A program made the translations under genes and the position numbers. Below, piece by piece: positions 5,135 to 24,653 of a DNA stretch of 34,662 nucleotides. A model generated the notes under the pieces. It ran no database searches, was not told the DNA's origin, and saw nothing but the letters and a program-made list of their open reading frames with translations. Source of the stretch: Nitrososphaerota archaeon (GTDB lineage Archaea; Thermoproteota; Nitrososphaeria; Nitrososphaerales; Gagatemarchaeaceae); assembly GCA_005877185.1 (NCBI GenBank), contig VBPQ01000028.1, forward strand, positions 1 to 34,662. The letters run 5' to 3'. Numbering within the stretch: position 1 is the first letter of the stretch; the number at the start of each line of letters is the position of its first letter.

Positions 5135-5310
5135 AAATGCCCGACGCCCGCACCCGGCTCCGATGGGTGCAATAACTATTCCGAGGATTCCGGGCGCCAG
5201 CGGTGCGCGAGCGAGGGATGTCGGACCCTCGTGGTTCGAAGTCGCTTGCCTGCTAGCTATCCCAGGCTATCCCCGAGGGCCACGGCACCCCATCGGCGCG
5301 ACCAAACAGG

Positions 5311-6063
5311 CTAGCGACGAAGACGACGTGCTTTCACGATCAGGTGCCAGCCGAGTTCGTACTTGTCGGGTAGGTTGAGCTTGAACTTGCGCTGGTCGGA
5401 GAGGTCAACCACGTTGAAGTGGACGCTAACGTCAATCATCTCAAAGTGGGGCGAGAGCAGAGCCCGCGCTTCCTCCTTCGTGTAGGCTTTCGTATAGGGG
5501 CATCCGAGGATTCTTTCGCTGTAGCGAGAAAGAAGCTTCTCCTCGCTCAGCCCCTCTTTTCGGTGTGAAAAGACGATTGAGTAGGCGTAAAGGAGGCTCT
5601 CCCTGTTGTAGAGCATGCAGATCAGCTCGCCGCCGGGCTTGAGCACCCTGGCGATCGCGCCTATCGCCGGGACGACCTCCGGGATGTGGTGAAGGACTCC
5701 GAACGAATATACGCAATCGAAACTGGCATCACCGAACGGCAGCTCCGTCGCGGTTGCGCGTACCGTATCATGGGCTAGACGCGCCTCGTTGAGGAGGCTA
5801 TTCGTGCTCAGCGCCCCATTCTCCGTGAAATCGAGACTCACCACCGAGGCGCCGTTTCGTGCGAATTCGGCAGAGTCTATCCCCGATCCCGAGCCTATCT
5901 CTAGTACACGCTTTCCCTTGAAGAGGTCGAAGCGGATCACTCCGGCCATATAATCCTGGAGCGAATATCGTGATGCCCTCTTTTCTTCGTAAGGACGGTC
6001 CTCGTTCCTGAAGGTCCAGGGTACTGCTTTTTCCCAGTAGCTCACAAACTCATCCGACATCAA
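5311..6063 (-). CDS. Class I SAM-dependent methyltransferase
   Basis: Motif I VLEIGSGSGIDS, followed by VVSLDF and a post-I/II pattern (FDCVYSFGVLHHI). Confidence 0.8.
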   Translation of the reverse strand: MMSDEFVSYWEKAVPWTFRNEDRPYEEKRASRYSLQDYMAGVIRFDLFKGKRVLEIGSGSGIDSAEFARNGASVVSLDFTENGALSTNSLLNEARLAHDTVRATATELPFGDASFDCVYSFGVLHHIPEVVPAIGAIARVLKPGGELICMLYNRESLLYAYSIVFSHRKEGLSEEKLLSRYSERILGCPYTKAYTKEEARALLSPHFEMIDVSVHFNVVDLSDQRKFKLNLPDKYELGWHLIVKARRLRR

Positions 6064-6282
6064 GCGTCGAGCTCACAGGCGAACAGAGGAAGGTACGGTA
6101 GTCTTTCGGACGAGAAGCAAGGGCATGAGCCAAGGGTCACGGTCTCCGGGACTGCCCCGTGGTCTGACGGTTAGGCCCCGTTGCGCGCAGTAAGTCGCTG
6201 CGGCTGCCAACGTCTCGAACTCGTCGAGTGCGTCTATAAACCGATTGGGCGGGATGGTCTCGAGGCGGGATGGATTGAGCTT

Positions 6283-7845
6283 TCATCCACCCGCGGCGAG
6301 CGAGGAGACGATGTTGAAGAGGGTCCTCGCGTATCTCCTGAACTTATGGTCGACGACGAAAAGAACCCCGAAGTAGAGCACCGCGCCCACAATCACCGTC
6401 AGCGCCAGCCTCAGTCCGTAGGAGACGGTCTCGAGCCCAGCCGGCAGGATTGCAACCCCGAAATAGCGTACCGCGATCGCCATCACGATTCCGGAGACGA
6501 CGTACAGGGGGAGCGAGGGCGAGAGGTACAGTCTGGCCTTCCCGCTGAGCCTCCTCGCCTTCACGGCCACAAGGACGCATGATAGGGCGAGCTGTGCTAC
6601 CGCCCAGTAGGCCGCGAACTGGTACGCGGGCGCGTCGCCAGCTGCGACGTAGCTGCCGAGAAGGAAGACGATACCGATGTACACCGCGGAGTAGGTCAAG
6701 TTTGCGATGGGCACGAACATCAGGTCGCTCCTGAGGATGCTCCTGGTCCTCCCCCTCTCCTCGTCGAGGTCGGCCCTCTCTCGACCGGTCAGCGTCTGGT
6801 CGAAGACCGTGGACACGAGCGTTACGATCGCTGAGAGGGAGAGAAACTCGAGAGCCGTGCTGCTTACGACGTAAGCCGGGGAGAGGAGGTACAATATCTG
6901 GGGCGCCAGGGCGATGGCGCCAGCGGCCATCGGGATGGCGAAGAGAAGCGAGAATTCGAGCACCTCACCCATCAGCTTGTCCGAGCGCTCTCTGAGGAGG
7001 AGCGGGTAGAGAGCCACTGAAAGGAAGGTCGAATACGAGACAATCGCGGCGACCTGGAAGGCCGCTTGGTAGTAACCGGCCAAGCTAGTTCCTCCTTGGC
7101 CCACGGACGCGGCGAAGGTGTCTGCGATTCCAAGGACGTAGGTGAGCGTCATCAACCCAGGCACGTACGGGTCCCTGAGCCACTTCCGGCCGAGGGCGAA
7201 GTCCACCCTCTCCGAGCTGACAATCCTCAGCTGGAAGGTGGAGAACGCGGCCTGCACGAAGTAGGAAACGGCGATGGCGATGATCACTCCCTCGATTCTG
7301 AGCTTGAAGACGAAGAGCAACGGGTAGGCTGCGATTAGCTTCGCCGGCTCTGAGACCAAGAGTGAGTAGGCACCGATCGCCGGGTTGTACCCGCCGACCA
7401 AGGCGGAGGTGGCCTGGTTCCAGTACGAAAGAGGGACGAGGATTATCGCGAGAATGAAGGGCCCGATGCTCGAACCGACCTCCGAGTAGCTTGCGAGCGC
7501 GAAAGCCAGGAATATCGCGACTCCGAGCATGCTCGCCAAGAGGTTAAGAACAAGAGTGGTCTTCCCGACGACCTTCCCCCTGGCCACATCCCTCGCCGCC
7601 CAGTATGTGAGGAAGCCTGCGGGATAGCTGGCGAAGACAATGAGGTCGACGATGAACTCCCAGAGCCCGAGTTGCGCGGGCGGCAGCCACCTGGCCACCA
7701 TGACGAGGAAGACGAAACCCGTGGCGGCGCTGACGATTCTAGAGCCGAAGACGATCAGCCCTGTCATCCGAGGCCTCACAGCTGAGCTCAACTCATGCGC
7801 ACCCGCAACCTCAATGAAATCACTGATAAGTGGAGTGCGTTTCAT
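6283..7845 (-). CDS. Polysaccharide/oligosaccharide flippase (MOP/Wzx-like), polytopic membrane protein
   Basis: 520 aa, with about 12-14 hydrophobic segments throughout, located in a glycan cluster. An alternative start is the internal MTGLIVFG (codon 27). Confidence 0.65.
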   Translation of the reverse strand: MKRTPLISDFIEVAGAHELSSAVRPRMTGLIVFGSRIVSAATGFVFLVMVARWLPPAQLGLWEFIVDLIVFASYPAGFLTYWAARDVARGKVVGKTTLVLNLLASMLGVAIFLAFALASYSEVGSSIGPFILAIILVPLSYWNQATSALVGGYNPAIGAYSLLVSEPAKLIAAYPLLFVFKLRIEGVIIAIAVSYFVQAAFSTFQLRIVSSERVDFALGRKWLRDPYVPGLMTLTYVLGIADTFAASVGQGGTSLAGYYQAAFQVAAIVSYSTFLSVALYPLLLRERSDKLMGEVLEFSLLFAIPMAAGAIALAPQILYLLSPAYVVSSTALEFLSLSAIVTLVSTVFDQTLTGRERADLDEERGRTRSILRSDLMFVPIANLTYSAVYIGIVFLLGSYVAAGDAPAYQFAAYWAVAQLALSCVLVAVKARRLSGKARLYLSPSLPLYVVSGIVMAIAVRYFGVAILPAGLETVSYGLRLALTVIVGAVLYFGVLFVVDHKFRRYARTLFNIVSSLAAGG

Positions 7846-13078: not shown

Positions 13079-13795
13079 TTACGGTAGGACGAGGTAGACT
13101 GCGGTGAGGCTGATCGTTGTGGTAGTAGTCGGGACAGTCAGATCGTGGAATCTGGCTATGTCCAGAGGGCCGTCGCTCCAGTGAGCGAAATACGCGTTTC
13201 CGTAATCAGCGACTGCGACTTGGTACTCCTGGCCATTGGTAACGAAGAACGTGCACGGAGAGAAACACTCGTCAACCATCACACAGTTTTGCCACTGTGT
13301 TTGGTCTTGGCAATTCTGCCATAGCGTCGTGTAGTAACCGCTTATTTCTCCGAATGAATCAACAGTACCCACCGAGATTTGCGAGTCGCCCGCCGGAATT
13401 GCAGTGATGTCGGCATACACTGCAGTTATTGCCTGGTCCGTTGTTATCATTCCCGTATCCCTGTATCTGTCTGTGCCACCGTCGGACCACCGGACGAACT
13501 GAAAAGTCCCGTAGTCGTCGACAAGAACTGTGTAAGTCTGTCCAACGGTGACGGTGAATGAGACTGGAGTAAAGCCCGTATCCACAATATTGCCGCCCGA
13601 ATCGAAGAGAACTGTGTAGTAGCCTGTGATGGTACTTCCACTCGTGTCTTCGCTAGTGACAGTCAACGTAGATGTTACCGCGGTCGCATGAGCACTCCTC
13701 AGGAGAGGCACGAACGCCAGCAGAGAGGATACCACGAGGAGCTTGATAAAAGAGGCGAGTCCTAGTCCACGCCTGCAAGCGTTGCCTATTTTCAC
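13079..13795 (-). CDS. Secreted/anchored protein with two tandem ~90-aa repeat domains, function unknown
   Basis: N-terminal signal/anchor (LGLASFIKLLVVSSLLAFVPLL). Internal repeat: GYYTVLFDSGG...FTVTVGQTYTVLVDDYGTFQFVRWSDGG...AITAVY versus GYYTTLWQN...FFVTNGQEYQVAVADYGNAYFAHWSDGP...SLTAVY. The second copy carries a 4-Cys insert. GC is lower than its surroundings. GTG start. Confidence 0.6.
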   Translation of the reverse strand: MKIGNACRRGLGLASFIKLLVVSSLLAFVPLLRSAHATAVTSTLTVTSEDTSGSTITGYYTVLFDSGGNIVDTGFTPVSFTVTVGQTYTVLVDDYGTFQFVRWSDGGTDRYRDTGMITTDQAITAVYADITAIPAGDSQISVGTVDSFGEISGYYTTLWQNCQDQTQWQNCVMVDECFSPCTFFVTNGQEYQVAVADYGNAYFAHWSDGPLDIARFHDLTVPTTTTTISLTAVYLVLP

Positions 13796-14348: not shown

Positions 14349-16139
14349 TCAGAATCCGTACATCGGGTCCGTCGCGGAGCGGACCCTGACTATCTCCTCG
14401 AGCGCCTCCAGGTCGTCCCCGCTGAGGGCGTTCAGATACTTTCCGCGGAGGAGCTTGACGTCGTGGCTTCGGGGGAGGGAGTAGAGGATGACGTTCTCCC
14501 TGATCTGCCTCCCGAGGGTCGGCCCGCTGACCGAGATCGCGACCTTATCCCCCATCCTCGCGCTCTCGAGATTCTTTCCCTTGTCCTGGATCTGCTCTAC
14601 CTTCCCTAACTCTTTCCCTTCCGCGTTCATCAGTCTCGCGTGGGGGTGTAACTTCCCGGCCAGCACCTCGACCCCGAAGACGGCCGGGTCATTTCGTCTG
14701 AAGAAGGCGCCCGGGAGGGCCTTTAGCTTGGCGGGGGTCGTGAGCGATGCCAGCCCGACCCTTTCGTTCTCCTCCCTCGCCTTCGCTGCCCACTCCGCAT
14801 ACTTGTCGATCACCTCGTAGATGACCGACGAGAGGAAGACCTGCCCGTTCTTCATCTCCTTCGCATCTGGGAGGAGCTTCACGTCGAAGCCGAGAATCGC
14901 GGCCAGGTAGGGGTCGTGGTCCTTCACCACCTCTGCCTCCACCGTGTCGTTCTTCGAGATATCGCCTATGTCTGCGAGCCTAACGGGGATCCCCCTCTCC
15001 TTGAGCATCTGTAGGAGGGCCTCCAGCCCACCGATGGAGCCCGCCTTCACGATGACGCCCATCGTGTCTCTCTTCACGACGACGTTCTGGAGGTCCTTCT
15101 CCACCTCCTTCTTGAGAGCGGCGAACTCCGACTCGTGCCTGAAGGTGATTACCGGGGTACCGGGTATGGCACCCTCCAAATCCGTCGAGACAAGCTTGAC
15201 GCCGGCGGCGGCGTAGACTCTCTGTACCGGGGTGAACTTGTCCCTCGGGTCTCTCATCTCGTCGAGAGGCTTCGGCATGAAGAGAGCCTTGACCTTCGAC
15301 TTGACCGCACCCTCCCTCTTGACGAGGACGATGGAGTCGCCCACGACGAACTTCCCCTCCGTGAGGATCACGTTGGCTGTCTGCCCGACCCCCGCTTCCT
15401 CCTGGAGCTCGAGGATTATCCCTCGCCCCCTCTCCGCCTCCTCGATCACCGAGAGCTTTCCTTTCAGGAACTGCTGGGCGAGCCCTATCAGGACAGCAAG
15501 AAGCTCTGGGATGCCTGTTCCGTACCTCGCGGAGACGGGCACGATGGAGACCTGCTTGCGAAAGTCTTTCACCCTGTAGTAAGCGTCAGACTCGAAGCCG
15601 AGCCTCGAGAGGGAGGCCACGACGTTGTAGAGCCTCTCCTCGAATTCGTCGTTCCACTCTGGCGTCTGCTGCTTCAGGACTTCCGCGAGGAGGCCCTCGC
15701 TTCCCTTCCTCCAGCCCTTGATCATGTCCACCTTGTTCAGCGCCACCAGGAAGGGGACGTGCCTCTGTTTGAGAATCTCGAGAGACTCTATCGTCTGGTT
15801 CTCCAGCCCCTTCAGGACGTCTACCACGAGGATGGCGATATCGGCCGCGGAGCCGCCCCTCACCCTGAGGTTGGAGAAGATTTCGTGGCCTGGCGTGTCG
15901 ATGACGAGCAGGCCGGGTATCTTCAGCTCTCCCCCCGCTCTGTCGAGGAGATTTCCGGTGATCGTCTGGAGGGTCTCTATGGGGAAGAAGCTCGCTCCGA
16001 TCTCTTGAGTGATCCCGCCCGCTTCCCTCGCCTGGACCGCGGTGCCGCGTATGCGATCAAGCAAAGAAGTTTTTCCCGCGTCCACATGACCGAGAACGAC
16101 GACGACAGGCTGGCGAAGCGTCTGTGTGGTGCTGGACAC
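14349..16139 (-). CDS. infB: Translation initiation factor aIF5B (IF-2)
   Basis: G1 GHVDAGKT, DTPGH and NKVD GTPase motifs. Length 596 aa. GTG start. Conserved position between ndk and S6e. Confidence 0.95.
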   Translation of the reverse strand: MSSTTQTLRQPVVVVLGHVDAGKTSLLDRIRGTAVQAREAGGITQEIGASFFPIETLQTITGNLLDRAGGELKIPGLLVIDTPGHEIFSNLRVRGGSAADIAILVVDVLKGLENQTIESLEILKQRHVPFLVALNKVDMIKGWRKGSEGLLAEVLKQQTPEWNDEFEERLYNVVASLSRLGFESDAYYRVKDFRKQVSIVPVSARYGTGIPELLAVLIGLAQQFLKGKLSVIEEAERGRGIILELQEEAGVGQTANVILTEGKFVVGDSIVLVKREGAVKSKVKALFMPKPLDEMRDPRDKFTPVQRVYAAAGVKLVSTDLEGAIPGTPVITFRHESEFAALKKEVEKDLQNVVVKRDTMGVIVKAGSIGGLEALLQMLKERGIPVRLADIGDISKNDTVEAEVVKDHDPYLAAILGFDVKLLPDAKEMKNGQVFLSSVIYEVIDKYAEWAAKAREENERVGLASLTTPAKLKALPGAFFRRNDPAVFGVEVLAGKLHPHARLMNAEGKELGKVEQIQDKGKNLESARMGDKVAISVSGPTLGRQIRENVILYSLPRSHDVKLLRGKYLNALSGDDLEALEEIVRVRSATDPMYGF

Positions 16140-16186: not shown

Positions 16187-16597
16187 TTAGAAGCCGAGAA
16201 CTTTGGTTTCGTGCTGGAAGCTGGCCGTCGAGTCTGAGGCGTGCACCGCGTTGTCTGTCAACCCGAGGGAGAGGTCTCCCCTTATCGTCCCCGCCTCGCT
16301 CTCCCAGGCCTTTGTTGCTCCTACCATCCGCCTCGCTGTGGCGACGGCGTCCCTCCCCACGAGAACTACCCCTACGACTGGTCCGCTGGAGATGAACGAG
16401 ACGAGCTCGTTGAAGAAGGGCTTGCCCCTGTGCACCTCGTAGAATTTCTCCGCCTGAGCTTTCGTCATCGTGATCATCCTGAGTTGCTTTATCGCGAATC
16501 CCTTCCTCTCGAATCGCGAGAGAATCTCCCCGACGTAACCCCGCTTGACCCCGTCGGGTTTAACGACGACGAGGGTCTCCTCGGTGGCTGTGCTCAA
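16187..16597 (-). CDS. ndk: Nucleoside diphosphate kinase
   Basis: ETLVVVKPDGVKRG...FERKGF...NAVHASDS (active-site His). TTG start. Confidence 0.93.
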   Translation of the reverse strand: MSTATEETLVVVKPDGVKRGYVGEILSRFERKGFAIKQLRMITMTKAQAEKFYEVHRGKPFFNELVSFISSGPVVGVVLVGRDAVATARRMVGATKAWESEAGTIRGDLSLGLTDNAVHASDSTASFQHETKVLGF

Positions 16598-16598
16598 C

Positions 16599-16775
16599 CT
16601 ACTTCCTACCTCTCGCCCACTTCAGCTTCCTCGGGTCGCGCTTCAGCTTCAGGTCGTTCACCTTGCACTTTGAGGAGCAGTAGCTACGAGTGGAGCCGTC
16701 GTTTTTGACGTACATTATCCCGAGGCCGAGATACACTTCTCTGCCGCAGAAAGAACATTTCTTGGGAGTATACAA
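16599..16775 (-). CDS. rpl24e: 50S ribosomal protein L24e (not in the supplied ORF track, under 60 aa)
   Basis: Hand translation of the minus strand gives (M)YTPKKCSFCGREVYLGLGIMYVKNDGSTRSYCSSKCKVNDLKLKRDPRKLKWARGRK*. This has the C-x2-C...C-x3-C L24e zinc motif and a PRKLKW tail. TTG start is at 16775, with GGTGGT 8 nt upstream and an in-frame TAG 2 codons further upstream. The stop TAG lies 1 nt before the ndk start. Confidence 0.88.
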   Translation of the reverse strand: MYTPKKCSFCGREVYLGLGIMYVKNDGSTRSYCSSKCKVNDLKLKRDPRKLKWARGRK

Positions 16776-16829
16776 TTCAAGCTACCACCATCGACCTACG
16801 GATGAACAGGACGTCCCCGTCGCGGTGTC

Positions 16830-16837
16830 AATATAAA
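16830..16837 (-). promoter_or_regulatory. TATA-like box TTTATATT (minus strand) about 55 nt upstream of L24e
   Basis: This is the only strong AT-rich octamer between L24e and the inserted cassette. It would give L24e-ndk-infB-S6e a promoter independent of L7Ae-S28e. Confidence 0.35.
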
Positions 16838-16913
16838 CAGAGCGATGAAATGTGGCAATCAGAGCGGGTAGCAGAATGAGTGGTGGTTAAAGCGTCCACG
16901 ACTGTCATTAGTC

Positions 16914-18185
16914 ATGGAAGAAATACTCGACGAATGGAATGACAAGCTTGTTGAGCACATTCTCAAGCACGGAGACGACCTCAGCTTCACGAAGTTCTTC
17001 TGGAAAGAATGCGAGGCGAACGAAAAGGAGCATGCGCAGTTCGCGCGATTCAGCAGAGCAATCTACTTGTCCCACGGTGGTATGTCGAACGCCAAAGTCG
17101 CGAGAGCGTTGGATACGGGCTATTCAACAGTCTGGACGTGGCTGAAGCTTAGTCGGTTGCCGAAGCTAGGGCATTACCTGAAAGTCTTTCTCGCGCTCGG
17201 GAAGCCGCATGAAAGGCGGGTTTGGCTCAGCGTGAATAATTCCCCAGGCCACGCGGTGCCATTGGGGCCGTACGTGGAAGTTCCCACCGAGATACGTGCG
17301 TGGGAAGATATCGAGCCTCTCTTAACTCAACTCCAGCCTATCGCAGTAATTACTGATGGACTGTCAAGGGCGTACCTCTTTGGTTTCCTCCTGGGGATGG
17401 TAATCGGAGATGCTGCCAAGCCGAGGCAAGAAGAGTGGCACAGACACCTGAACCTGACTCTCAGTGAGAAATATTCCACTAACTGGAACTTGGGCGAGTT
17501 CACCTGCCTATGTGCCGCGAGCGCAGGACTAAGGATGGAACGCGCCACAGACTTGCCACGAAGTCATGATAAGCCTCATGGGTTCTATTGTTGGACGTCC
17601 CAATCGTCGGCTTTGATCGATTGGATTTACAACGTCTGTCTGGGTCTTACGGATGAAGAACTTACGACGTATGATGCGGTGAGAATGAATTGGGGGCTGA
17701 CGGGACCGGATGATTTCAGAAGAGGACTAATTCAGGGCCTGGCCGAATCAGACGGGTCGGTCAACATAGCGAGTCAAGCAGTAGAATTCTGGATCGGTCC
17801 CAACTGGGAGTTCGGCGCGAGGCTATTGGAAAGCTTCGGCTTGCATTCCTTTAGAAGCCGAGAAGCGCTCTGCGTCTCGAAGACCCAGGTAGTGAAGTCA
17901 CTGGAAGTCCCTTTGTTCTCCCCACTCTTGAAGACAGTGCGGTACACCCGGTATGAGAAACTGGCCAGTGCGAAACGAATGGCCAGGGGCGGCAGTCGTC
18001 TCCCTGATGGAGTGCGAAACACAATAACGAGACTGAAGGCCCAGGGACTTTCAGTCAGCGAGGTTTCAGAGAAGATCATTGACGCTTACGGAATAAGCGT
18101 GTCCTTCGAAGCGCTCAAGAGGTGGGCGGGGAGACACGGAGGGAGAAAAGCCGCTTTAGATGGTGGCGCTGAGAACGTTGGCTAG
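16914..18185 (+). CDS. Free-standing double-motif LAGLIDADG homing-endonuclease-like protein with N- and C-terminal HTH segments
   Basis: Motif 1 is [17 protein letters not shown] and motif 2 is [15 protein letters not shown], about 115 aa apart, and both keep the acidic residue. HTH-like segments are [23 protein letters not shown] and [29 protein letters not shown] was about 47% on the two lines counted versus about 65% in infB. It is on the opposite strand to the flanking ribosomal operon. Confidence 0.65.
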
Positions 18186-18434
18186 AACGCCGCCGAGTAC
18201 AAGGGCGATTATTACGAGGAGTTTCACCTTGCGCGCCTCTCTTTCGGTGTCTCTCAAGATCAGTATGTCCGCGAGCTTGATCGGACCCTTCACGTTCCTC
18301 GTGAGGATCCTTCCCTTCTCCTTCCCCTCGAGCAGCTTTACCCTAACCTGAGTTATCTCCCCCGCCACGCCAGTCCTGCTCACTATCTGGACGACCTCAG
18401 CGGATGTGAGCGCCTCAACCTCTCGCTTGCTCAC
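18156..18434 (-). CDS. rps28e: 30S ribosomal protein S28e with an aberrant 21-aa hydrophobic C-terminal extension
   Basis: The core [60 protein letters not shown] is canonical S28e. The ORF then continues [21 protein letters not shown], overlapping the 3' end of the LAGLIDADG ORF. Confidence 0.85.
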
Positions 18435-18811
18435 GCGGCCTTCTTCAACCTCGTCAGCTCTTGGGTGACCTGCTCGAGTATCTGCGACCCCTCCCCGGCC
18501 TCGATGACGGCCGCTGCGGCCGTGGGGACGTCGATCCCGATCGCTGGGCCAATCTGCGCCCTCGAGGGCACGAAGACGTAAGGAATCTTCTTCTCTTCAC
18601 AGATGATCGGGAGGTGGGCGACAACCTCGGGGGGCTGGACGTCCTCGGCGATGACGACGAGTTTCGCCATCCCTCTCTCTATCGCCTTCGTCGACTCGTT
18701 CGTGCCCTTCCTCACTTTACCCGTTCTCGAGGCTTGCCTCAGTACCTCGTAGGATGCCTCGGCAACTTCCTTAGGCGTCTCGAACTTTACGTAGTACGGC
18801 TTGGGGGTCAT
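18431..18811 (-). CDS. rpl7ae: 50S ribosomal protein L7Ae
   Basis: [47 protein letters not shown]...[16 protein letters not shown]. The start is moved to ATG 18811, because the track's extra MSGCHWAIFK is not conserved-looking. Overlaps the S28e start by 4 nt. Confidence 0.92.
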
Positions 18812-18846
18812 CTTGAAAATCGCCCAATGACAGCCTGACACCTCAG

Positions 18847-18854
18847 ATACTTAA
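18847..18854 (-). promoter_or_regulatory. TATA-like box TTAAGTAT (minus strand) for rpl7ae-rps28e
   Basis: Lies 36 nt upstream of ATG 18811. The IS target duplication begins only 8 nt further upstream. Confidence 0.4.
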
Positions 18855-18869
18855 GGGTTGGCGGTCAGC

Positions 18870-19996
18870 GGCTCTGTAGAAACCCTCTTCTCAGAAATTC
18901 GGTCTGACTGAGGTCCTATTCGTAGAACGCTCAAGATTCTTTCAGATGGCACGTTTTGCCATCGTCCGCTGGCTCAACACCCCTGGTTGGAATGACAGGG
19001 AAGAAGAACCGGAAGGACGATGACGAACAGAAGAGACGGGAGAGCAGGTACATAAGGATGGTCAGGGCAGTCTTCAAGGTCTGTCAGAGGCAGTGCATCC
19101 CGCTCTACTCCAGCAAGTTCTCTAGGAAGGATTACACACTCTGGCAGCACATCGCCCTCCTCGTCCTATGGCAGAGGATTAGGAAGTCGTACAGGGAGTA
19201 CGTGGACGACTTCCTCACGGTGGCAGACAGGCTCGTCGCAGCCCTCGGCTTGGCCAAGCTTCCACACTTCACCACGATAGAGAAGTTCGTCCTGAGGGTC
19301 CCGTCGACACTCCTCGAGAGGGTGATGGGAGGGTTCGTCCTCCTGACCAGGATCAGGGGGCAGGTCTTCTCCCCAGACTCCTCCGGGTTCTCACCCAATC
19401 ACGTCTCCAGATACTATGCCCTCAGAATCAAGAGGGACGTCCTCTCGTCGATGAAGAGGCAGGTGAGGCAGAAGGAGAGGTGCGAGAGGAGATGACGAAG
19501 AGAAGGACGAGGCGCTTCCTGAAGCTGACCATCGGTGTGGAGCTGAGGACCCAGCTTGTCACCTCGATCAAGCTCAGGAGAGGCCCTGCCAATGACAACA
19601 GGGATTTCGAGCCCGTGGTGAGGAAGGGTCACTCGGTCAAGCCAATCAAGGTCGGCATCGGGGACAAGGGCTACGACGACGAGGACAACCACGAGCTCCT
19701 GAGGGACGAGCTCGGTGCGATGTCCATAATCCCTGCGAGGTATGAGAACGTCCCCATCTGGAGGACGAGGGGGCGCTACAGGAAGGAGATGAAGAGAGGA
19801 TACTCGAAGAAGACGTACCACCAGAGGTCCAAGGACGAGACGGTCTTCTCCGTTGCGAAGAGGACCATGGGGGAAGAGGTGAGGTCTGTCAGGGTGAAGG
19901 CGCAGAACAATGAGATGAGGTTCAGGGTGATAGCCTACAATGCGTCAAGGACAGTGAGCCTGGCCTATTCTTTAGTCAGAGGGTTTCTACAGAGCC
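18870..19996 (+). mobile_element. Insertion sequence, IS4/IS5-superfamily DDE type (IS5-family, ISH1-like by size and 8-bp duplication)
   Basis: Perfect 19-bp terminal inverted repeats: GGCTCTGTAGAAACCCTCT (18870..18888) and AGAGGGTTTCTACAGAGCC (19978..19996). Flanking 8-bp direct repeat CGGTCAGC (18862..18869 and 19997..20004). Length 1127 bp. It encodes a DDE transposase split into two frames. Confidence 0.88.
18956..19495 (+). CDS. IS transposase, N-terminal part (frame 2)
   Basis: Contains the first catalytic-Asp region SPDSSGFSPNHVSRYY (the D(S/A)(S/T)GF pattern of IS4/IS5 DDE transposases). The true start may be ATG 18992 (MTGKKNRK). Confidence 0.7.
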   Translation: MPSSAGSTPLVGMTGKKNRKDDDEQKRRESRYIRMVRAVFKVCQRQCIPLYSSKFSRKDYTLWQHIALLVLWQRIRKSYREYVDDFLTVADRLVAALGLAKLPHFTTIEKFVLRVPSTLLERVMGGFVLLTRIRGQVFSPDSSGFSPNHVSRYYALRIKRDVLSSMKRQVRQKERCERR

Positions 19997-20025
19997 CGGT
20001 CAGCAACCGGCCTCTATTATCCTGA
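19480..20025 (+). CDS. IS transposase, C-terminal part (frame 1, -1 relative to the N-terminal part)
   Basis: RRFLKLTIGVE..., second Asp GIGDKGYDDEDN, and Glu region YHQRSKDETVFSVAKRTMG. The ORF runs through the right IR and stops 29 nt outside the element. No slippery heptamer is visible in the 16-nt overlap. Confidence 0.7.
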   Translation: MREEMTKRRTRRFLKLTIGVELRTQLVTSIKLRRGPANDNRDFEPVVRKGHSVKPIKVGIGDKGYDDEDNHELLRDELGAMSIIPARYENVPIWRTRGRYRKEMKRGYSKKTYHQRSKDETVFSVAKRTMGEEVRSVRVKAQNNEMRFRVIAYNASRTVSLAYSLVRGFLQSPVSNRPLLS

Positions 20026-20180
20026 AATTGGTTCACCCCCTAGCAACAGGTCAGCAACCGGCCCGGGAGCCCTACGCCTGAGTCCCTACCCGCGACATCG
20101 TTCCTGACCGACGTAAAGGGACTTGCTTTGCGGGGCGGAAGCAGCTTCGAGCCACCGAACAGAAAGACCTGGTCTCTCCG

Positions 20181-21911
20181 TCATCTGTGCGCCAGTACGC
20201 AGGTGTCCCGCGCATCGACCCTGCAGAACCCGTACCTCATGAACTGGATGATCTGCCCCATTTTGAGGTCGCTGAACGACTCCTCCACGAGCCCCTTCGT
20301 GGTGACGAGGCTCTTCCTGTTCACCGAGCCGTCCTCGTTGTAGAGGGGGCCGGGCTCGAGAACCTTGAGCTTCGTCTTCAGGTCCGTGACCCACTGGATC
20401 TTGGGTGTATCATGAATCACCTCCTCGCTGTGGAATTGAGCTGTTATCAGGTTGGTCTTCTTCCCGAGTACCTGAACGTTGTACAGCTCGATTAGCCGAA
20501 GGACCGTCCCCGCTTTTGCGGCAAGCGCGTCTCGCTTCGGGACGAAGAAGAACCCCGAGGTCTGGATCGTCCTGCTCCCCAGATCCTTCTCGGGGTGATA
20601 CGGGATTCTCGCCCTCTTTGAGGGGGCGTCTTTCACGTGGAGGGCGATGGGGTCTGGGACGAACATCAACCTCTTCGAAAGCGGGTCGAGAAGCTTTCTG
20701 TTCACGGCGAAGAGGAGGGACCAGTCGTACTCGTGCTCGGTCTTCGTGTAACCGACCTGAAGGGTGAACTGCTTGATCGATTCTGGCAGGATTCCCCTCC
20801 TCTTGACACCCTCGACCGTGGGCATCCTCGGATCGTCCCATCCGCTGACGAGCTTCTTCTCGACGAGGGGGCGGAGGAGCCTCTTCGAGACAGGCGTCCC
20901 CTTGAAGTTGAACCTGGAGAACTGGAGGACGGTGACGGGTCGGAAGGAGAGGAACCCCCTCATCAGCTCTTGAAGCGCGAGATGAAACTCCGAGCTGCGG
21001 AGGACGTGAGTTATCTTGCAGAGCTCGTCCTCGACCACGACCTCGAAGTCGTACGTGGGCCAGACCGAATACCTCGAACCAGTCAGGGGGTGGGGGTGCT
21101 CTATCACCCTGAAGATGTTTGGGTCTCTCAGGGAGTAGTCGAGGCTCGTCATATCTCCCCTCAGTCTTATTACGTACTCCCCCTCCCCGTACTTCTTCGA
21201 GATCATCCCGTTCCAGATCTCCAGGTTCTTCTCGAAAGACTGTTCCCTGTGCTCGCAGGCCGTCCCCGAGAACCTGAGCTTCTTCACCTTCGCCTCGTCG
21301 CATCCGCAGGCGTACGCGTTCCCCTCCGAGAGAAGCGTCTGCCCGTACTCGTAGAGTATCTCCAGGTCGCTCGAGACGCTCTTCTCGTAGTCCCACTTTA
21401 TCCCGAGCCACCGGCTCCCCTCCCTGAAACTCTCGTAGTAGCGGGTTTCGACCTTCCTCGGGTTGGTGTCCTCGAAGCGGAGCCAGAGCTTCCCGTCGTA
21501 TTTCTCGGCATAGACCGAGTTGATCATGAAGGCCATCCCGTGCCCTATATGCATGAACCCCGACGGCTCCGGCGGCAGCCTGAAGGCGAGCGCCCCCTTC
21601 ACGTTGGGAAGTGGGGGAAGCCCGACTCGCCCCTCCTCCCTCTCCCTGGGCGCAACATCGGCTTCTGGGTATCTCTCGCGGAGAAGCGCCCGCAGGTTCT
21701 CGACTGTCATCGCGTTCACCTCTTTCACCCTCTCCTCGACCGCCCGCGCGACCTCCTTCGCGCTGGCGCGCAGCTCGGGATACTCCCCGATCACCTTGCT
21801 CATGACCGCGCCGACCTCGGCTTTGCCGTCGTGGCGAAGAGCGTTGAGCAGGGCGTTTCTCTCGACGGATGCGACGACGTTTTCCGAGAGGCCGTCTTCT
21901 CTGGTTACCAC
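20181..21911 (-). CDS. gltX: Glutamyl-tRNA synthetase (archaeal type)
   Basis: RLPPEPSGFMHIGHGMAF (HIGH) and a class I GlxRS core. The N-terminus VERNALLNALRHDGKAEVGAVMSKV matches the archaeal GluRS N-domain. The start is set to GTG 21911, which overlaps the GGPPS stop (GTGGTAA). The track's 750-aa ORF is an upstream over-extension into the GGPPS gene in another frame. Confidence 0.88.
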   Translation of the reverse strand: MVTREDGLSENVVASVERNALLNALRHDGKAEVGAVMSKVIGEYPELRASAKEVARAVEERVKEVNAMTVENLRALLRERYPEADVAPREREEGRVGLPPLPNVKGALAFRLPPEPSGFMHIGHGMAFMINSVYAEKYDGKLWLRFEDTNPRKVETRYYESFREGSRWLGIKWDYEKSVSSDLEILYEYGQTLLSEGNAYACGCDEAKVKKLRFSGTACEHREQSFEKNLEIWNGMISKKYGEGEYVIRLRGDMTSLDYSLRDPNIFRVIEHPHPLTGSRYSVWPTYDFEVVVEDELCKITHVLRSSEFHLALQELMRGFLSFRPVTVLQFSRFNFKGTPVSKRLLRPLVEKKLVSGWDDPRMPTVEGVKRRGILPESIKQFTLQVGYTKTEHEYDWSLLFAVNRKLLDPLSKRLMFVPDPIALHVKDAPSKRARIPYHPEKDLGSRTIQTSGFFFVPKRDALAAKAGTVLRLIELYNVQVLGKKTNLITAQFHSEEVIHDTPKIQWVTDLKTKLKVLEPGPLYNEDGSVNRKSLVTTKGLVEESFSDLKMGQIIQFMRYGFCRVDARDTCVLAHR

Positions 21912-22978
21912 TGCCGCTCGACCGAATACCTTGCGACTCGCGCCAGGAGTTCGACCGACTCTTTCTCCCCCTTCCACTCTACCGTGCCGAGGACCTCGAG
22001 CGCCTCCCCGAGAAGGTGGGATGCCTTCTCCTGCGAGTACCTGATCGCCCCGTGTTTCTTCATCAGCGAGATGACATAACGGACGTCTTCGGCTGTCTTT
22101 CGATTCCTGCTCTTGCCCATTATCTTCAGAACCTTCTCCCTCTCTCCGCTCTCCGCAACCTCGAGCAACCTGAGAAGTATCAGCGTCCTCTTTCCTTCGA
22201 GTATGTCGTCGGAAGTCTCCTTCCCGTACTTCTCGGCGTCGCCCACCAGGTTGAGGGCATCGTCTTGTATCTGGAAGGCCATCCCGAGTTTGGTCCCGAA
22301 CTCGAGGAGCTTCTTCAGCTCCCCCTCCCCCGCCCCGGCTACGATCGCTCCGAGCCTGCAGGGGCTCGTCACTGTGTACCAGGCGGTCTTCCTGGTAACC
22401 ATCTTGAGGTAGTCGGACTCGTTGAGCCCCCACTTGTTCTCGACCACCCAGACAAGCTCCATGTGCTGCCCCTCCGTGGTCTCGTTGACCATCCTCGAGA
22501 ATTCGTCGAGTATCCTGAGCGTCCTCTCCTCTCCGAGGAGCTTCCTGTTCCTAAGAAGGAAGCCCCACATCCTGGCGTGAAGGGCGTCGCCCGCGTTGAT
22601 CGCGAGCCCCTCGTCGTACTTCCTGTGAAGGGTAGGCTCTCCTCTTCGCAGCTCGGAGCTGTCCTCGATGTCGTCGTGGATAAGGATCCAGTTTTGAAAG
22701 AGCTCAATGCATGCGGCGGTGAGGAGGCAGTCGCTCTCCTCCCCCCCGAATGCCTTGCAGGTGCTTACGCAAAAGAAGGGGCGGAGTCCCTTCCCCTTCC
22801 GCTGGGGGTAGTCCCTCATCATCCTGTAGAGGAGGTCGACCTCCTTCAGCGGGCTCGAAGAGGGGAGGAGCTGGTTGAGGATGACGTAGTCGACCCTTGA
22901 CTTGACCCTCCCGACCTCATCGAGGAGGGAGGGCGTCCCTGATTTCGAGTCGCTCGTGAAACCTGTGTGCTGGGTCAT
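21905..22978 (-). CDS. idsA: Polyprenyl (geranylgeranyl) diphosphate synthase
   Basis: First and second aspartate-rich motifs, ILIHDDIEDSSELRRG and FQIQDDALN. ATG overlaps the IPK stop (ATGA). Confidence 0.9.
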   Translation of the reverse strand: MTQHTGFTSDSKSGTPSLLDEVGRVKSRVDYVILNQLLPSSSPLKEVDLLYRMMRDYPQRKGKGLRPFFCVSTCKAFGGEESDCLLTAACIELFQNWILIHDDIEDSSELRRGEPTLHRKYDEGLAINAGDALHARMWGFLLRNRKLLGEERTLRILDEFSRMVNETTEGQHMELVWVVENKWGLNESDYLKMVTRKTAWYTVTSPCRLGAIVAGAGEGELKKLLEFGTKLGMAFQIQDDALNLVGDAEKYGKETSDDILEGKRTLILLRLLEVAESGEREKVLKIMGKSRNRKTAEDVRYVISLMKKHGAIRYSQEKASHLLGEALEVLGTVEWKGEKESVELLARVARYSVERQW

Positions 22979-23733
22979 ACTGCCACCATCGTGCCGTAGA
23001 AGTCAAGCCCCCTCAAGGCTTTCGCGAATTCAGCTCTCCTAAAACCGGAGACAAAACTTACGCTCGTCCCCAGAGAAGCGATCTTCCCCGCGACCTGAAG
23101 CTTGAGCTTCATACCTCCAGTCGCATCGTCTCCAAGGTCCACCTTAAGTTTGCTCATCTGGGAGGCTGATATCGTCCGGAGGAGGTTCCCCGCCTTCTCC
23201 TTCTCCCTGCCTCGATAGACTCCGTCGACATCCAACGCGAAGACACAGCGGACCGGCCTCAGGACCTTGGCCAACTCGTGCATGATCGTGTCACCTGAAA
23301 GGATCCTAAAGCCTCTCGGATATGAGGAGACGTCGCCGAAGGTGACGGGGGAGAGCCCCGAGGAGAGGAGGTTCCTGAGCCAGGACCTCGCGTGCTCCCC
23401 GTCGGAACTCACGAGTAGGTCGAAGGGAGCGAAGGGGTAGGTCTCGACGCCCGCCCCCATCAAGGCTCTGCACACCAGTTGATTGAGCGCGTACATGGCG
23501 TCTCGGGTCTTGCTCACCCCTTCCCCTCCTCTCGAGTAGGCTCCCGAGGTGAGGCCGTACTCCTTCGCGACCGGGTGACCGAATGAGCCGCCGCCGTGGA
23601 CGAGGACGACTCGTTCGTGAGACGCGGCTATCTCCTCTCCCAGAGCCGATACCACTTCCGCTCTGAATGAGAAAGGCTTAGTCTTGTCGGTAATCACAGA
23701 CCCGCCGAGCTTCGCGAGAGTTACCGGAGCCAA
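22975..23733 (-). CDS. Isopentenyl phosphate kinase
   Basis: Amino-acid-kinase fold motifs LAKLGGSVITDK and VLVHGGGSFGH. TTG start. Mevalonate-pathway context. Confidence 0.85.
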   Translation of the reverse strand: MAPVTLAKLGGSVITDKTKPFSFRAEVVSALGEEIAASHERVVLVHGGGSFGHPVAKEYGLTSGAYSRGGEGVSKTRDAMYALNQLVCRALMGAGVETYPFAPFDLLVSSDGEHARSWLRNLLSSGLSPVTFGDVSSYPRGFRILSGDTIMHELAKVLRPVRCVFALDVDGVYRGREKEKAGNLLRTISASQMSKLKVDLGDDATGGMKLKLQVAGKIASLGTSVSFVSGFRRAEFAKALRGLDFYGTMVAV

Positions 23734-24653
23734 CTCTTTACACCCTCGGTGGGCACGTTTGTCTGGAAGGATTCGTATCCCCTCGACTTCAGCTCCGCGA
23801 TGAGGGCGTCGGTGCTCCCCTCCCTCGGGATGGCGAAGACGCTACCCCCTCCTCCGGCCCCGGTCAGCTTAGCGCCGTAGCAGCCGAGCGCGAGGAGGAG
23901 GTCGACCAACCTATCGAGGTTCGGGGTCGAAGCACCCACCGTCGAGAGTACCGCGTGGCTGTAGGTCAGGAGCCTCCCCAACTCCTGCATATCCCCGTTG
24001 ACGAGCCTCGTCTCGGCGAGCTCAGAGATGAAGGAGGCGGAGTTGGCCAGCCCCGCGAAGAGCCCGGGATACTTCACTTTCATCCGCGAGACCCTGTCGA
24101 TGAGAGTCTTCGTGCTCCTCTTCGTCCCCGACTGGACGATGAGGAATCTGCGCGAGCCGGCGAACCTGACCTTCCTAGCTTCCTCCCCCATCTTGTACAT
24201 GATGACGCCACCCGTCGCACAGATGTTGACGTCAATCCCAGAGGCTCTGCCATGAATCGCAGTCTCCCCCGTCATCGCGTAGCGCGATATCTCGCTCGTG
24301 GCGAGCTCGATTCCTTTCAGCTTCGTGAGGGCCGATGCGACGGCCACCATCGTCGCGGCGGACGACCCCAGCCCGGAACTCTCTGGAACCTGGGAGGTTA
24401 TCCGGATGAGAACCCTCGGACTGAAGCGTAACTCCTCAGATAGCTTCGTCACGACCCTCGCGACGGGGGCGAGTCTCTTCCCCGATGATCCACTCGATCG
24501 TTGTCCGTCGGACTCGATGACCAGTTCCTCCGCCTCGCTCGCCTCGACCTTGACCCTTCTCTCGACGGCCGCGGCGAGCGCCCAGGCCCCGTGAACGACG
24601 AAGTGTTCGCCCGTGATGATGGCCTTGCACGGTGCGTCCGCAACAGCCTTCAA
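23721..24653 (-). CDS. mvk: Mevalonate kinase
   Basis: GHMP kinase motifs KAIITGEHFVVHG, SSGLGSSAA and KLTGAGGGGSVFA. TTG start. Confidence 0.9.
   Translation of the reverse strand: MKAVADAPCKAIITGEHFVVHGAWALAAAVERRVKVEASEAEELVIESDGQRSSGSSGKRLAPVARVVTKLSEELRFSPRVLIRITSQVPESSGLGSSAATMVAVASALTKLKGIELATSEISRYAMTGETAIHGRASGIDVNICATGGVIMYKMGEEARKVRFAGSRRFLIVQSGTKRSTKTLIDRVSRMKVKYPGLFAGLANSASFISELAETRLVNGDMQELGRLLTYSHAVLSTVGASTPNLDRLVDLLLALGCYGAKLTGAGGGGSVFAIPREGSTDALIAELKSRGYESFQTNVPTEGVKSWLR

Follow-up and report, generated by a model that had tools for sequence, protein, structure and literature searches.

A candidate free-standing LAGLIDADG homing endonuclease gene at the polymorphic S28e-L24e junction of soil Nitrososphaerota

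Introduction

What kind of gene separates the ribosomal protein genes rps28e and rpl24e in a soil archaeon, and what keeps it at this position? The question is raised by contig VBPQ01000028.1 of a Nitrososphaerota archaeon (assembly GCA_005877185.1), whose analysed stretch of 34,662 nucleotides (nt) we refer to as the window. A first reading of this DNA from its letters and open reading frames (ORFs), here called the original prediction, had described a spacer of about 1.4 kb between the two genes that holds a single ORF on the opposite strand. This is the layout of the locus: the ORF runs from 16914 to 18185 on the plus strand and, according to the ORF list, a structural model and its homologues, encodes a protein of 423 amino acids with a double LAGLIDADG core between two helix-turn-helix (HTH) domains.

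LAGLIDADG enzymes recognise very long, specific DNA sites, and the archaeal homing endonucleases of this type are known from ribosomal RNA (rRNA) introns and from inteins. The ORF lies outside either setting, as the original prediction had held: an Rfam scan of the whole window gave no match, the protein lacks an intein-splicing domain, and the gene has its own start codon, stop codon and promoter-like box. Two fates had been proposed for it, that of an intergenic homing element and that of a domesticated DNA-binding protein. Here we favour the first. With a probability that we put at roughly 0.55, the segment is a free-standing LAGLIDADG homing endonuclease gene residing in the spacer just downstream of rps28e in a clade of soil Nitrososphaerota related to Candidatus (Ca.) Gagatemarchaeaceae. 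We arrive at this reading because an intact active site under selection, a fixed insertion point, the presence of all stages from intact to degenerate to empty, and the replacement of the entire cassette body between genomes with 91% identity coincide at one site.

Results

The ORF encodes a predicted LAGLIDADG protein with HTH domains at both ends

An AlphaFold2 model of the 423-residue protein, built on 40 homologues, reached a predicted local distance difference test score (pLDDT) of 91.3 and a predicted template modelling score (pTM) of 0.88. The succession of secondary-structure elements in this model fits a monomeric, two-motif LAGLIDADG homing endonuclease. When the model was compared with the PDB by Foldseek, the best matches were all LAGLIDADG proteins, namely I-DmoI, with a template modelling (TM) score of 0.65-0.70 over about 200 columns, the endonuclease domains of the PI-SceI and TliVMA inteins, WhiA, the bI3 maturase and I-SceI, with the alignment to WhiA being the longest among them (316 columns). 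The protein is thus predicted to be a free-standing, monomeric, double-motif LAGLIDADG fold with HTH domains at both ends, and model and structural matches speak against the possibility that the motifs are spurious and the fold is a different one. Sequence searches of the PDB, either with the single protein or with a profile, returned nothing useful.

Motif 1 (LLGMVIGDA, residues 159-167; 17388-17414, plus strand) closes the model helix 152-164, and motif 2 (IQGLAESDG, residues 273-281; 17730-17756, plus strand) closes the model helix 266-280. Their starts lie 114 residues apart, in keeping with the spacing of about 115 amino acids noted at first. Each of the two LAGLIDADG helices ends C-terminally in an acidic residue of the metal-binding type (D166 and D280), and the claim that both motifs keep the catalytic aspartate was borne out by all alignments: the two residues are invariant in 40 orthologues (44-87% identical), in a 33-sequence alignment that includes relatives with only about 23-33% identity and reaches down to 22%, and in a third alignment (A4). 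Among the orthologues, E278, S279, D280, G281 and S282 are all invariant; once the relatives with about 23-33% identity are added, only four columns stay so, D166 and D280 among them. The window protein itself has no Pfam/NCBIfam LAGLIDADG match, whereas several homologues that are 23-33% identical match PF14528 (LAGLIDADG_3) above the cut-off at the aligned position.

HTH-like segments at both termini had likewise been seen from the letters alone. The N-terminal one (residues 48-79; 17055-17150, plus strand) matches Pfam HTH_23 with an E value of 1e-5, above the gathering score, and contains the model helices 59-66 and 70-77. At the other end, the helices 342-352, 365-376, 381-392 and 398-408 of the model form a helical HTH domain (residues ~342-408; 17937-18137, plus strand), within which the region 353-388 gives weak matches to HTH_38 and sigma-70 region 4. 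An extra beta-hairpin/helix module is located at residues 100-140. A Pfam scan of the window protein found HTH only and no WhiA, intein-splicing (Hint) or zinc-finger domain; PADLOC gave no match, and in PHROGs there was only a marginal match to a generic HTH (E 0.0086).

The box GGTTAAAG (16886-16893, plus strand) lies 21-28 nt upstream of the ATG codon of the ORF and is a putative promoter element. A GG(T/C)TAAAT-like box positioned 21-30 nt 5' of the start codon is present in most intact loci of all clades, and its location suggests that the gene may be transcribed from its own promoter into a leaderless mRNA. A scan for bacterial-type promoters and terminators yielded only a TATA-containing match and zero terminators.

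The S28e-L24e site is intact, decayed, swapped or empty among related lineages

A protein search recovered more than 150 full-length homologues, all of them from Nitrososphaerota (Thaumarchaeota) metagenome-assembled genomes, one being a Ca. Gagatemarchaeum. Searches that started from the ORF found the gene at the same position in 26 species-level genomes. In those orthologous loci of 28 species-representative genomes that have enough flanking DNA, the ORF is always arranged tail-to-tail with S28e-L7Ae, and L24e-ndk is found either directly upstream of it or 0.8-3.7 kb away behind unrelated cargo genes. Taken by themselves, these loci gave the impression of a gene fixed in synteny across the whole lineage, the very pattern that the original prediction had named as speaking against its proposal. 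However, since the loci had been found via the ORF itself, the apparent fixation proved to be an ascertainment bias once the site was sampled via S28e, and we discarded it.

Sampling via S28e besides the ORF brought the collection to about 110 loci in all, in which L-numbers denote individual loci or contigs. An intact ORF is present in 36 of them, 13 carry the ORF on a truncated contig, 12 have copies with stop codons and/or frameshifts, and two hold a short remnant. In a further 14 loci no ORF is detectable and the S28e-L24e gap is enlarged to 166-1407 bp, and 19 loci have a clean empty junction of 79-113 bp (11 bp in L082), so that the comparison with related genomes did reveal the empty sites that the original prediction had proposed to look for. 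About one quarter of the full-length copies are pseudogenes. Identical lesions occur in independent assemblies (L006 and L046; L099 and L102), and their recurrence marks them as real mutations rather than assembly errors. The ORF profile still finds matches in five of the 14 enlarged gaps, and in two of these both the N- and the C-terminal end match while the core is deleted; in L113 the N-terminal 37 residues are fused straight to the C-terminal HTH, the nuclease core having been deleted.

These states are interspersed on a tree of L7Ae, S28e and L24e. When 15 empty sites were each paired with the closest locus by L7Ae-S28e DNA, that locus had the ORF or what is left of it in 10 cases; one coherent clade is wholly empty or gapped. 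The site next to S28e always holds this one family and never another system, and tblastn detected one S28e match and one copy of the ORF family per locus (in some cases as several collinear pieces). Collectively, the S28e-L24e site is polymorphic among lineages, the cassette being intact, decayed, swapped or absent.

Cargo between the ORF and rpl24e was seen in L001, L009-L011, L013, L014, L016-L018, L021 and L025. It includes genes for a phosphoesterase, an FtsZ/tubulin-like protein, an NMT1/THI5-like protein, a TMEM175 channel and a beta-propeller protein; in these genomes the ORF remains joined to S28e, not to L24e.

Divergent cassettes replace one another between otherwise similar genomes

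Four contigs (L121, L122, L123 and L042) match the window at about 91% DNA identity across more than 10 kb to the left and right of the cassette (window 14306-17014/17021, 18222-18868 and 20183-24365). From 17013/17021 to 18221, in contrast, their DNA is either unalignable to that of the window or at most 68% identical, and the proteins encoded by their ORF bodies are just 48-52% identical to the window protein. A comparison of L121 with L122 gives the same picture. L005, L041 and L045, whose flanks have diverged to an equal extent, nevertheless carry an ORF that is 87% identical to that of the window. The segment 17013-18221 is hence a swappable cassette body that is replaced by divergent alleles in congeneric genomes.

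In every allele class the right edge of this body falls exactly at 18221/18222, where the canonical S28e codons end with K71. Past K71, the window-type allele runs on into a hydrophobic tail, and the other two alleles give TGA or TAA. The left edge follows codon 33 of the ORF in the P0026 type (as in L121) and codon 36 in the P0066 type (as in L122; window 17013 or 17021), and the S28e coding body is not chimeric, its identity to the four contigs being about 91-92% throughout. A breakpoint at ORF codons 33-37 (window 17013-17021) is thus common to several independent events. Both foreign allele classes have their left edge here, and so do the internal deletions by which, in the remnants of L113 and L091, the N-terminal 37 residues came to adjoin the C-terminal HTH. 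This position may be no more than the point where conserved homology ends, or breaks may be favoured there.

Each of the three allele classes is a deep lineage with at most 58% identity to anything else sampled, and a search for a donor lineage of the P0026-type and P0066-type alleles found nearest relatives outside the class of at most 57% identity. The classes are far older than the genomes carrying them, and they have either moved between lineages or represent an ancient polymorphism kept at the site.

The cassette adds a hydrophobic tail to S28e

The original prediction had placed the end of S28e near 18225. No stop codon is present there: the full rps28e reading frame in the ORF list (18156-18434, minus strand) reads through the stop position of its relatives, continues to 18156 and overlaps the 3' end of the ORF by 30 nt. 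Beyond the 71 canonical S28e codons (18222-18434, minus strand; Pfam/NCBIfam S28e), the cassette therefore encodes a hydrophobic tail of 21 residues and a stop codon (18156-18221, minus strand).

Long-form S28e occurs in 43 loci, 40 of which contain the ORF or its remnants and three of which lie on contigs too short to tell; none of the 19 clean empty sites has it. Apart from the window, the tailed loci include L004, L007, L010, L012-L014, L016, L017, L020, L072, L095, L100, L113 and others. The 36 distinct tails comprise 19-24 residues with a mean of 83% hydrophobic and 0.3 charged residues, they share a pattern like LW-IAL-LGL-LA-QL, and they stay in frame even where the ORF has been deleted or does not overlap. 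Short-form loci were also checked for hydrophobic codons hidden in frame behind the S28e stop, and none has such an extension. This pattern looks like selection for a transmembrane-like tail on the core ribosomal protein eS28, for which we offer no explanation.

Insertion edges and the L24e promoter

In a sister sub-clade, empty and occupied junctions are homologous up to and including S28e codon 71, then differ, and are homologous again from a point a few bases upstream of the L24e TATA box. By analogy with these junctions, the insertion in the window would extend approximately from 16845 to 18221, no close empty allele having been found for its left edge (16845).

The L24e TATA box TTTATATT (16830-16837, minus strand) is located where it had been predicted, and its ATATAAA core is invariant and at a fixed distance from the L24e start in nine occupied loci. 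The accompanying claim, that the cassette forces L24e onto a promoter of its own, does not hold: the same TATA box is found about 50 nt upstream of L24e at clean empty sites, which rules out the cassette as the creator of this promoter.

The 8-bp inverted pair CCACCATC / GATGGTGG (16785-16792 and 18159-18166) near the two edges exists as described as well, and we rejected it as the termini of an element. Its left arm corresponds, on the opposite strand, to the conserved L24e Shine-Dalgarno sequence, the ribosome-binding region that reads GATGGTGG on the minus strand (16785-16792) and belongs to a GGTGAT/GGTGG motif. In every aligned locus this motif precedes the L24e start by 7-12 nt. The right arm is mutated in the closest relative, L005, and an 8-bp inverted pair arises between two 100-bp edge zones in 8.4% of shuffles.

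Base composition, selection and inheritance

The guanine plus cytosine (GC) content of the segment 16776-18225 is 53.2% (53.5% for the ORF), as compared with 59-60% in the flanks. The difference is smaller than the value of about 47% against 60-65% given in the original prediction, and among 25 lines of sixty bases just two do not exceed 47%. Composition deviates most clearly at third codon positions, where the GC content (GC3) is 0.61 in the ORF and 0.70-0.86 in nearly all other genes of the window. A GC3 deficit relative to host genes is present in every homologue of every lineage.

Between the ORF and its counterpart in the closest genome, L005, the ratio of non-synonymous to synonymous substitution rates (dN/dS) amounts to 0.26 for the whole gene and to 0.15 for the nuclease core, values that point to purifying selection on the ORF. 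Its dS of 0.26 is the same as that of L7Ae, S28e, L24e and ndk. Since the GC3 deficit is found in all orthologues and dS equals that of the flanks, a recent foreign arrival is ruled out as the cause of the low GC content.

Locus L008 has an ORF that groups with those of clade 2 (64% identical to L009), and its L7Ae+S28e flank groups with clade 1. It is the sole candidate for a transfer between the two deep clades, and the sequences involved are short.

Relatives of the family at other housekeeping genes

Members of the wider family were found beside other conserved genes. In another Nitrososphaerota genome, a paralogue with 29% identity (L030 4001-5230, plus strand) is placed tail-to-tail with the gene for EF-1alpha (5273-6601, minus strand), with 43 nt between their ends, and this is the same arrangement as that of the window ORF with S28e. 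In contigs of DPANN archaea (Nanoarchaeota/Woesearchaeota; L033, L034, L036 and L037), family members that are 42-50% identical to one another lie immediately upstream of kae1/tsaD on the same strand, 4-48 nt away, at three different loci; kae1/tsaD is followed by sua5 in L033 and L034. From the neighbourhoods of EF-1alpha and kae1/tsaD, each subfamily appears to be tied to one conserved housekeeping gene. Both HTH domains are conserved from Nitrososphaerota to DPANN.

Other branches have different neighbours. In L039/L040 (1132-7169), members of 722 amino acids stand in an apparent operon behind a BrxP/SspD-like PAPS-reductase gene and a gene for an 864-residue HerA/mad8-like ATPase, and in L031 (2242-4855) another paralogue and a HerA/mad8-like gene are arranged divergently. 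Parts of the family may belong to defence-type systems.

Neighbouring genes and other insertions in the window

Of the genes around the cassette, infB (14349-16139, minus strand), ndk (16187-16597, minus strand), rpl24e (16599-16775, minus strand) and rpl7ae (18431-18841, minus strand) are assigned by the ORF list and by Pfam/NCBIfam. The window ORF list contains no partner, immunity or modification gene in the cassette.

The infB gene of the window (596 amino acids) is without an intein. Its close relative L006 has about 1.6 kb of extra DNA in infB (L006 1545-3150), at a point that corresponds to about 16065-16071 of the window, near the P-loop; in the more distant L001, L002 and L004, infB encodes about 1100 amino acids, which include the domains Intein_splicing and LAGLIDADG_3. 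We suspect here a second homing endonuclease polymorphism, independent of that at S28e and 1 kb away from it.

An insertion sequence occupies window 18870-19996, between rpl7ae and the gene for a Gln/Glu-tRNA synthetase. It has perfect 19-bp terminal inverted repeats (GGCTCTGTAGAAACCCTCT) and a DDE_Tnp_1 transposase split over the overlapping ORFs 18956-19495 and 19480-20025. The region 18869-20182, which includes the insertion sequence, has no aligned counterpart in L042, L043, L045, L046, L122 and L123, where about 175 unaligned bases stand opposite to it; in the comparison with L121 the unaligned stretch is 18864-20168. Because close relatives lack a counterpart, the insertion sequence is probably recent. 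A gene at 13079-13795 (minus strand) also has an unusually low GC content (0.526) and GC3 (0.59) relative to its neighbours.

Discussion

How would such a gene maintain itself beside rps28e? We envisage that its own TTAAAT-type box drives the synthesis of a leaderless mRNA and that the monomeric enzyme would use D166 and D280 to cut a long, asymmetric site. The cut would fall at or near the 3' end of rps28e, for which the canonical S28e coding region is the candidate target, or at the rps28e-rpl24e junction, in chromosomes that lack the cassette or carry another allele of it. The break would then be repaired by copying from a cassette-bearing chromosome, with the highly conserved rps28e as one (right) homology arm and, as the other (left) arm, either the side of rpl24e or codons 1-33 of the ORF, which are conserved. 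An incoming cassette would place its own stop codon or its 21-residue hydrophobic tail right after S28e codon 71, and the altered junction would protect the new allele from cutting. After fixation, copies would decay and be deleted, and empty sites would be re-created or persist. The cassette behaviour foreseen by the idea of an intergenic homing element is observed at this site in the form of empty sites, pseudogenes, remnants and swapped alleles.

Several points weigh against a homing endonuclease gene. The trees of the ORF and of its flanks agree on the two deepest clades, and ORF and flank distances are correlated (Mantel r 0.44; 0 of 5000 permutations); from this agreement most inheritance appears to be vertical, with only L008 looking misplaced. 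The flank tree taken to represent the hosts is a neighbour-joining tree of 277 residues without support values. We searched for a pair of very close genomes of which one is occupied and the other empty; the closest such pair has a flank identity of only about 88%, which places the observed polymorphism between lineages and not within a population. With no sampled donor for any allele class, an ancient balanced polymorphism fits the swapped cassettes no worse than recent transfer. The empty-site spacers, which are unconserved except for the S28e end and the L24e promoter, yielded no target site, and a scan of viral contigs found no member of the family. Finally, purifying selection and two accessory HTH domains throughout the family are features that a gene with a host function could show as well.

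Such a host function is the substance of the best surviving rival, which we nevertheless regard as unlikely. According to it, the ORF encodes a domesticated LAGLIDADG-HTH DNA-binding protein or site-specific nuclease that is kept for a cellular job, for instance, like WhiA in bacteria, a regulatory one, here at the divergent rpl24e-ndk-infB promoter or at the convergent rpl7ae-rps28e unit; balancing or diversifying selection would maintain the allele classes, and the gene would be lost where its function is dispensable. The same position in 26 species-level genomes, dN/dS values of 0.15-0.26 at a dS equal to that of the flanks, and the broad congruence of ORF and flanks, with its mostly vertical inheritance, are all to be expected of a domesticated gene. 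So are the conservation of both HTH domains from Nitrososphaerota to DPANN, the stable synteny with kae1 in the latter and the conserved promoter box of the gene itself, and WhiA is among the best structural matches and provides the longest top-ranked alignment. Yet a regulator of this kind would hardly be a pseudogene in about one quarter of its full-length copies, with remnants and clean empty sites interspersed among occupied ones, and the exchange of whole bodies for alleles of about 50% identity between genomes that are 91% identical would be unusual for it. L24e has the same promoter whether the gene is present or not. There is no Pfam WhiA match, and where proteins of the WhiA type have lost the catalytic acidic residues (PMC3384342), these are the most conserved ones of the entire family studied here. 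Site polymorphism and retained acidic residues thus weaken the domestication alternative that the original prediction had offered.

We give little credence to a conflict or defence gene in a recombination hotspot, a nuclease directed against foreign DNA or used for self/non-self discrimination with an arms race instead of homing behind its divergent alleles, frequent losses and low GC3: it would account for deeply divergent allele classes exchanged as a unit, for the frequency of pseudogenes and losses, for the HerA/mad8-like ATPases and the BrxP/SspD-like PAPS-reductase gene beside distant paralogues and for the entry of unrelated cargo at the same ORF-L24e break in other genomes, but the window protein has no PADLOC match, the cassette has no partner, immunity or modification gene, the site beside S28e holds only this family and no other systems, no viral relatives were found, and the long specific sites of LAGLIDADG enzymes suit homing better than broad defence.

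How does a homing endonuclease gene of this kind compare with known systems? With I-DmoI and other archaeal monomeric double-motif enzymes, the window protein shares its fold, two acidic-ended LAGLIDADG helices per chain and an archaeal host. I-DmoI, however, is encoded in an rRNA intron and has about 190 residues, whereas the window protein is free-standing in a spacer, has 423 residues and carries in addition the beta-hairpin/helix module (100-140) and two terminal HTH domains; no sequence similarity to the LAGLIDADG members in the PDB is detectable. WhiA/DUF199 proteins resemble it in combining a double LAGLIDADG core with a C-terminal HTH domain in a free-standing chromosomal gene, over 316 aligned columns. 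WhiA has lost both the acidic and the basic active-site residues and cannot cut DNA (PMC3384342), whereas the family described here keeps both aspartates invariant; it is universal and syntenic in Gram-positive bacteria, whereas the window gene is present, decayed, swapped or absent among close lineages and has an extra N-terminal HTH domain.

The closest population pattern, with pseudogenes and divergent alleles, is that of the WHO/HO genes of budding yeasts (PMC7282813). These too are free-standing genes for LAGLIDADG-type endonucleases with an added DNA-binding domain, and the element sits just downstream of a highly expressed essential gene. In yeast the element rewrites the end of this gene, and in the archaeal locus each allele supplies its own stop codon or tail after S28e codon 71. 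WHO proteins derive from inteins and carry zinc fingers; when a WHO element homes, about 400 bp of the FBA1 coding sequence are replaced, and fragments of FBA1 as well as tandem clusters of WHO genes stay behind (PMC7282813). In contrast, the window family has no Hint domain and carries HTH domains instead of zinc fingers, only the stop codon or tail of S28e is changed, tblastn revealed neither tandem clusters nor fragments of the target gene, and the host is a prokaryote without meiosis. The seg/mob genes of T-even phages (intronless homing, e.g., mobE; PMC2790892) likewise place an endonuclease gene in a spacer between conserved genes and show presence/absence polymorphism, and they spread by double-strand-break repair with co-conversion of flanks, as may be proposed by analogy here. 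They belong to the GIY-YIG or HNH type and reside in viral genomes, whereas the window gene is of the LAGLIDADG type and resides in an archaeal chromosome, no viral copies having been found.

A more far-reaching proposal, which is possible although we have to call it doubtful as a whole, is that the cassette represents a prokaryotic counterpart of WHO/HO homing in yeasts. It would home to the stop-codon region of an essential ribosomal protein gene, with deeply divergent allele classes that are each immune to themselves, though possibly not to the others, replacing one another whole. Each would rewrite the C-terminus of eS28, in about half of the lineages with a selected, transmembrane-like tail of 21 residues, and the same strategy would be pursued at EF-1alpha in another Nitrososphaerota genome and at kae1 in DPANN archaea.

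In the literature that could be searched, we found no description of this family or arrangement in archaea. The family is previously unnamed and has no dedicated Pfam/NCBIfam model, and its architecture, host group and genomic niche are new for a homing endonuclease gene. If our reading is true, it adds to the archaeal homing endonucleases a free-standing chromosomal family with two accessory HTH domains and a fixed home beside a ribosomal protein gene. Every stage of the life cycle and three swapped allele classes with base-precise edges are at hand in this series of loci, which makes target recognition, self-immunity, competition between alleles and gene flow in uncultured soil Nitrososphaerota testable. 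The family could also supply new meganuclease scaffolds, and the cassette-borne hydrophobic tail of eS28, an unexplained change to a core ribosomal protein, merits a study of its own.

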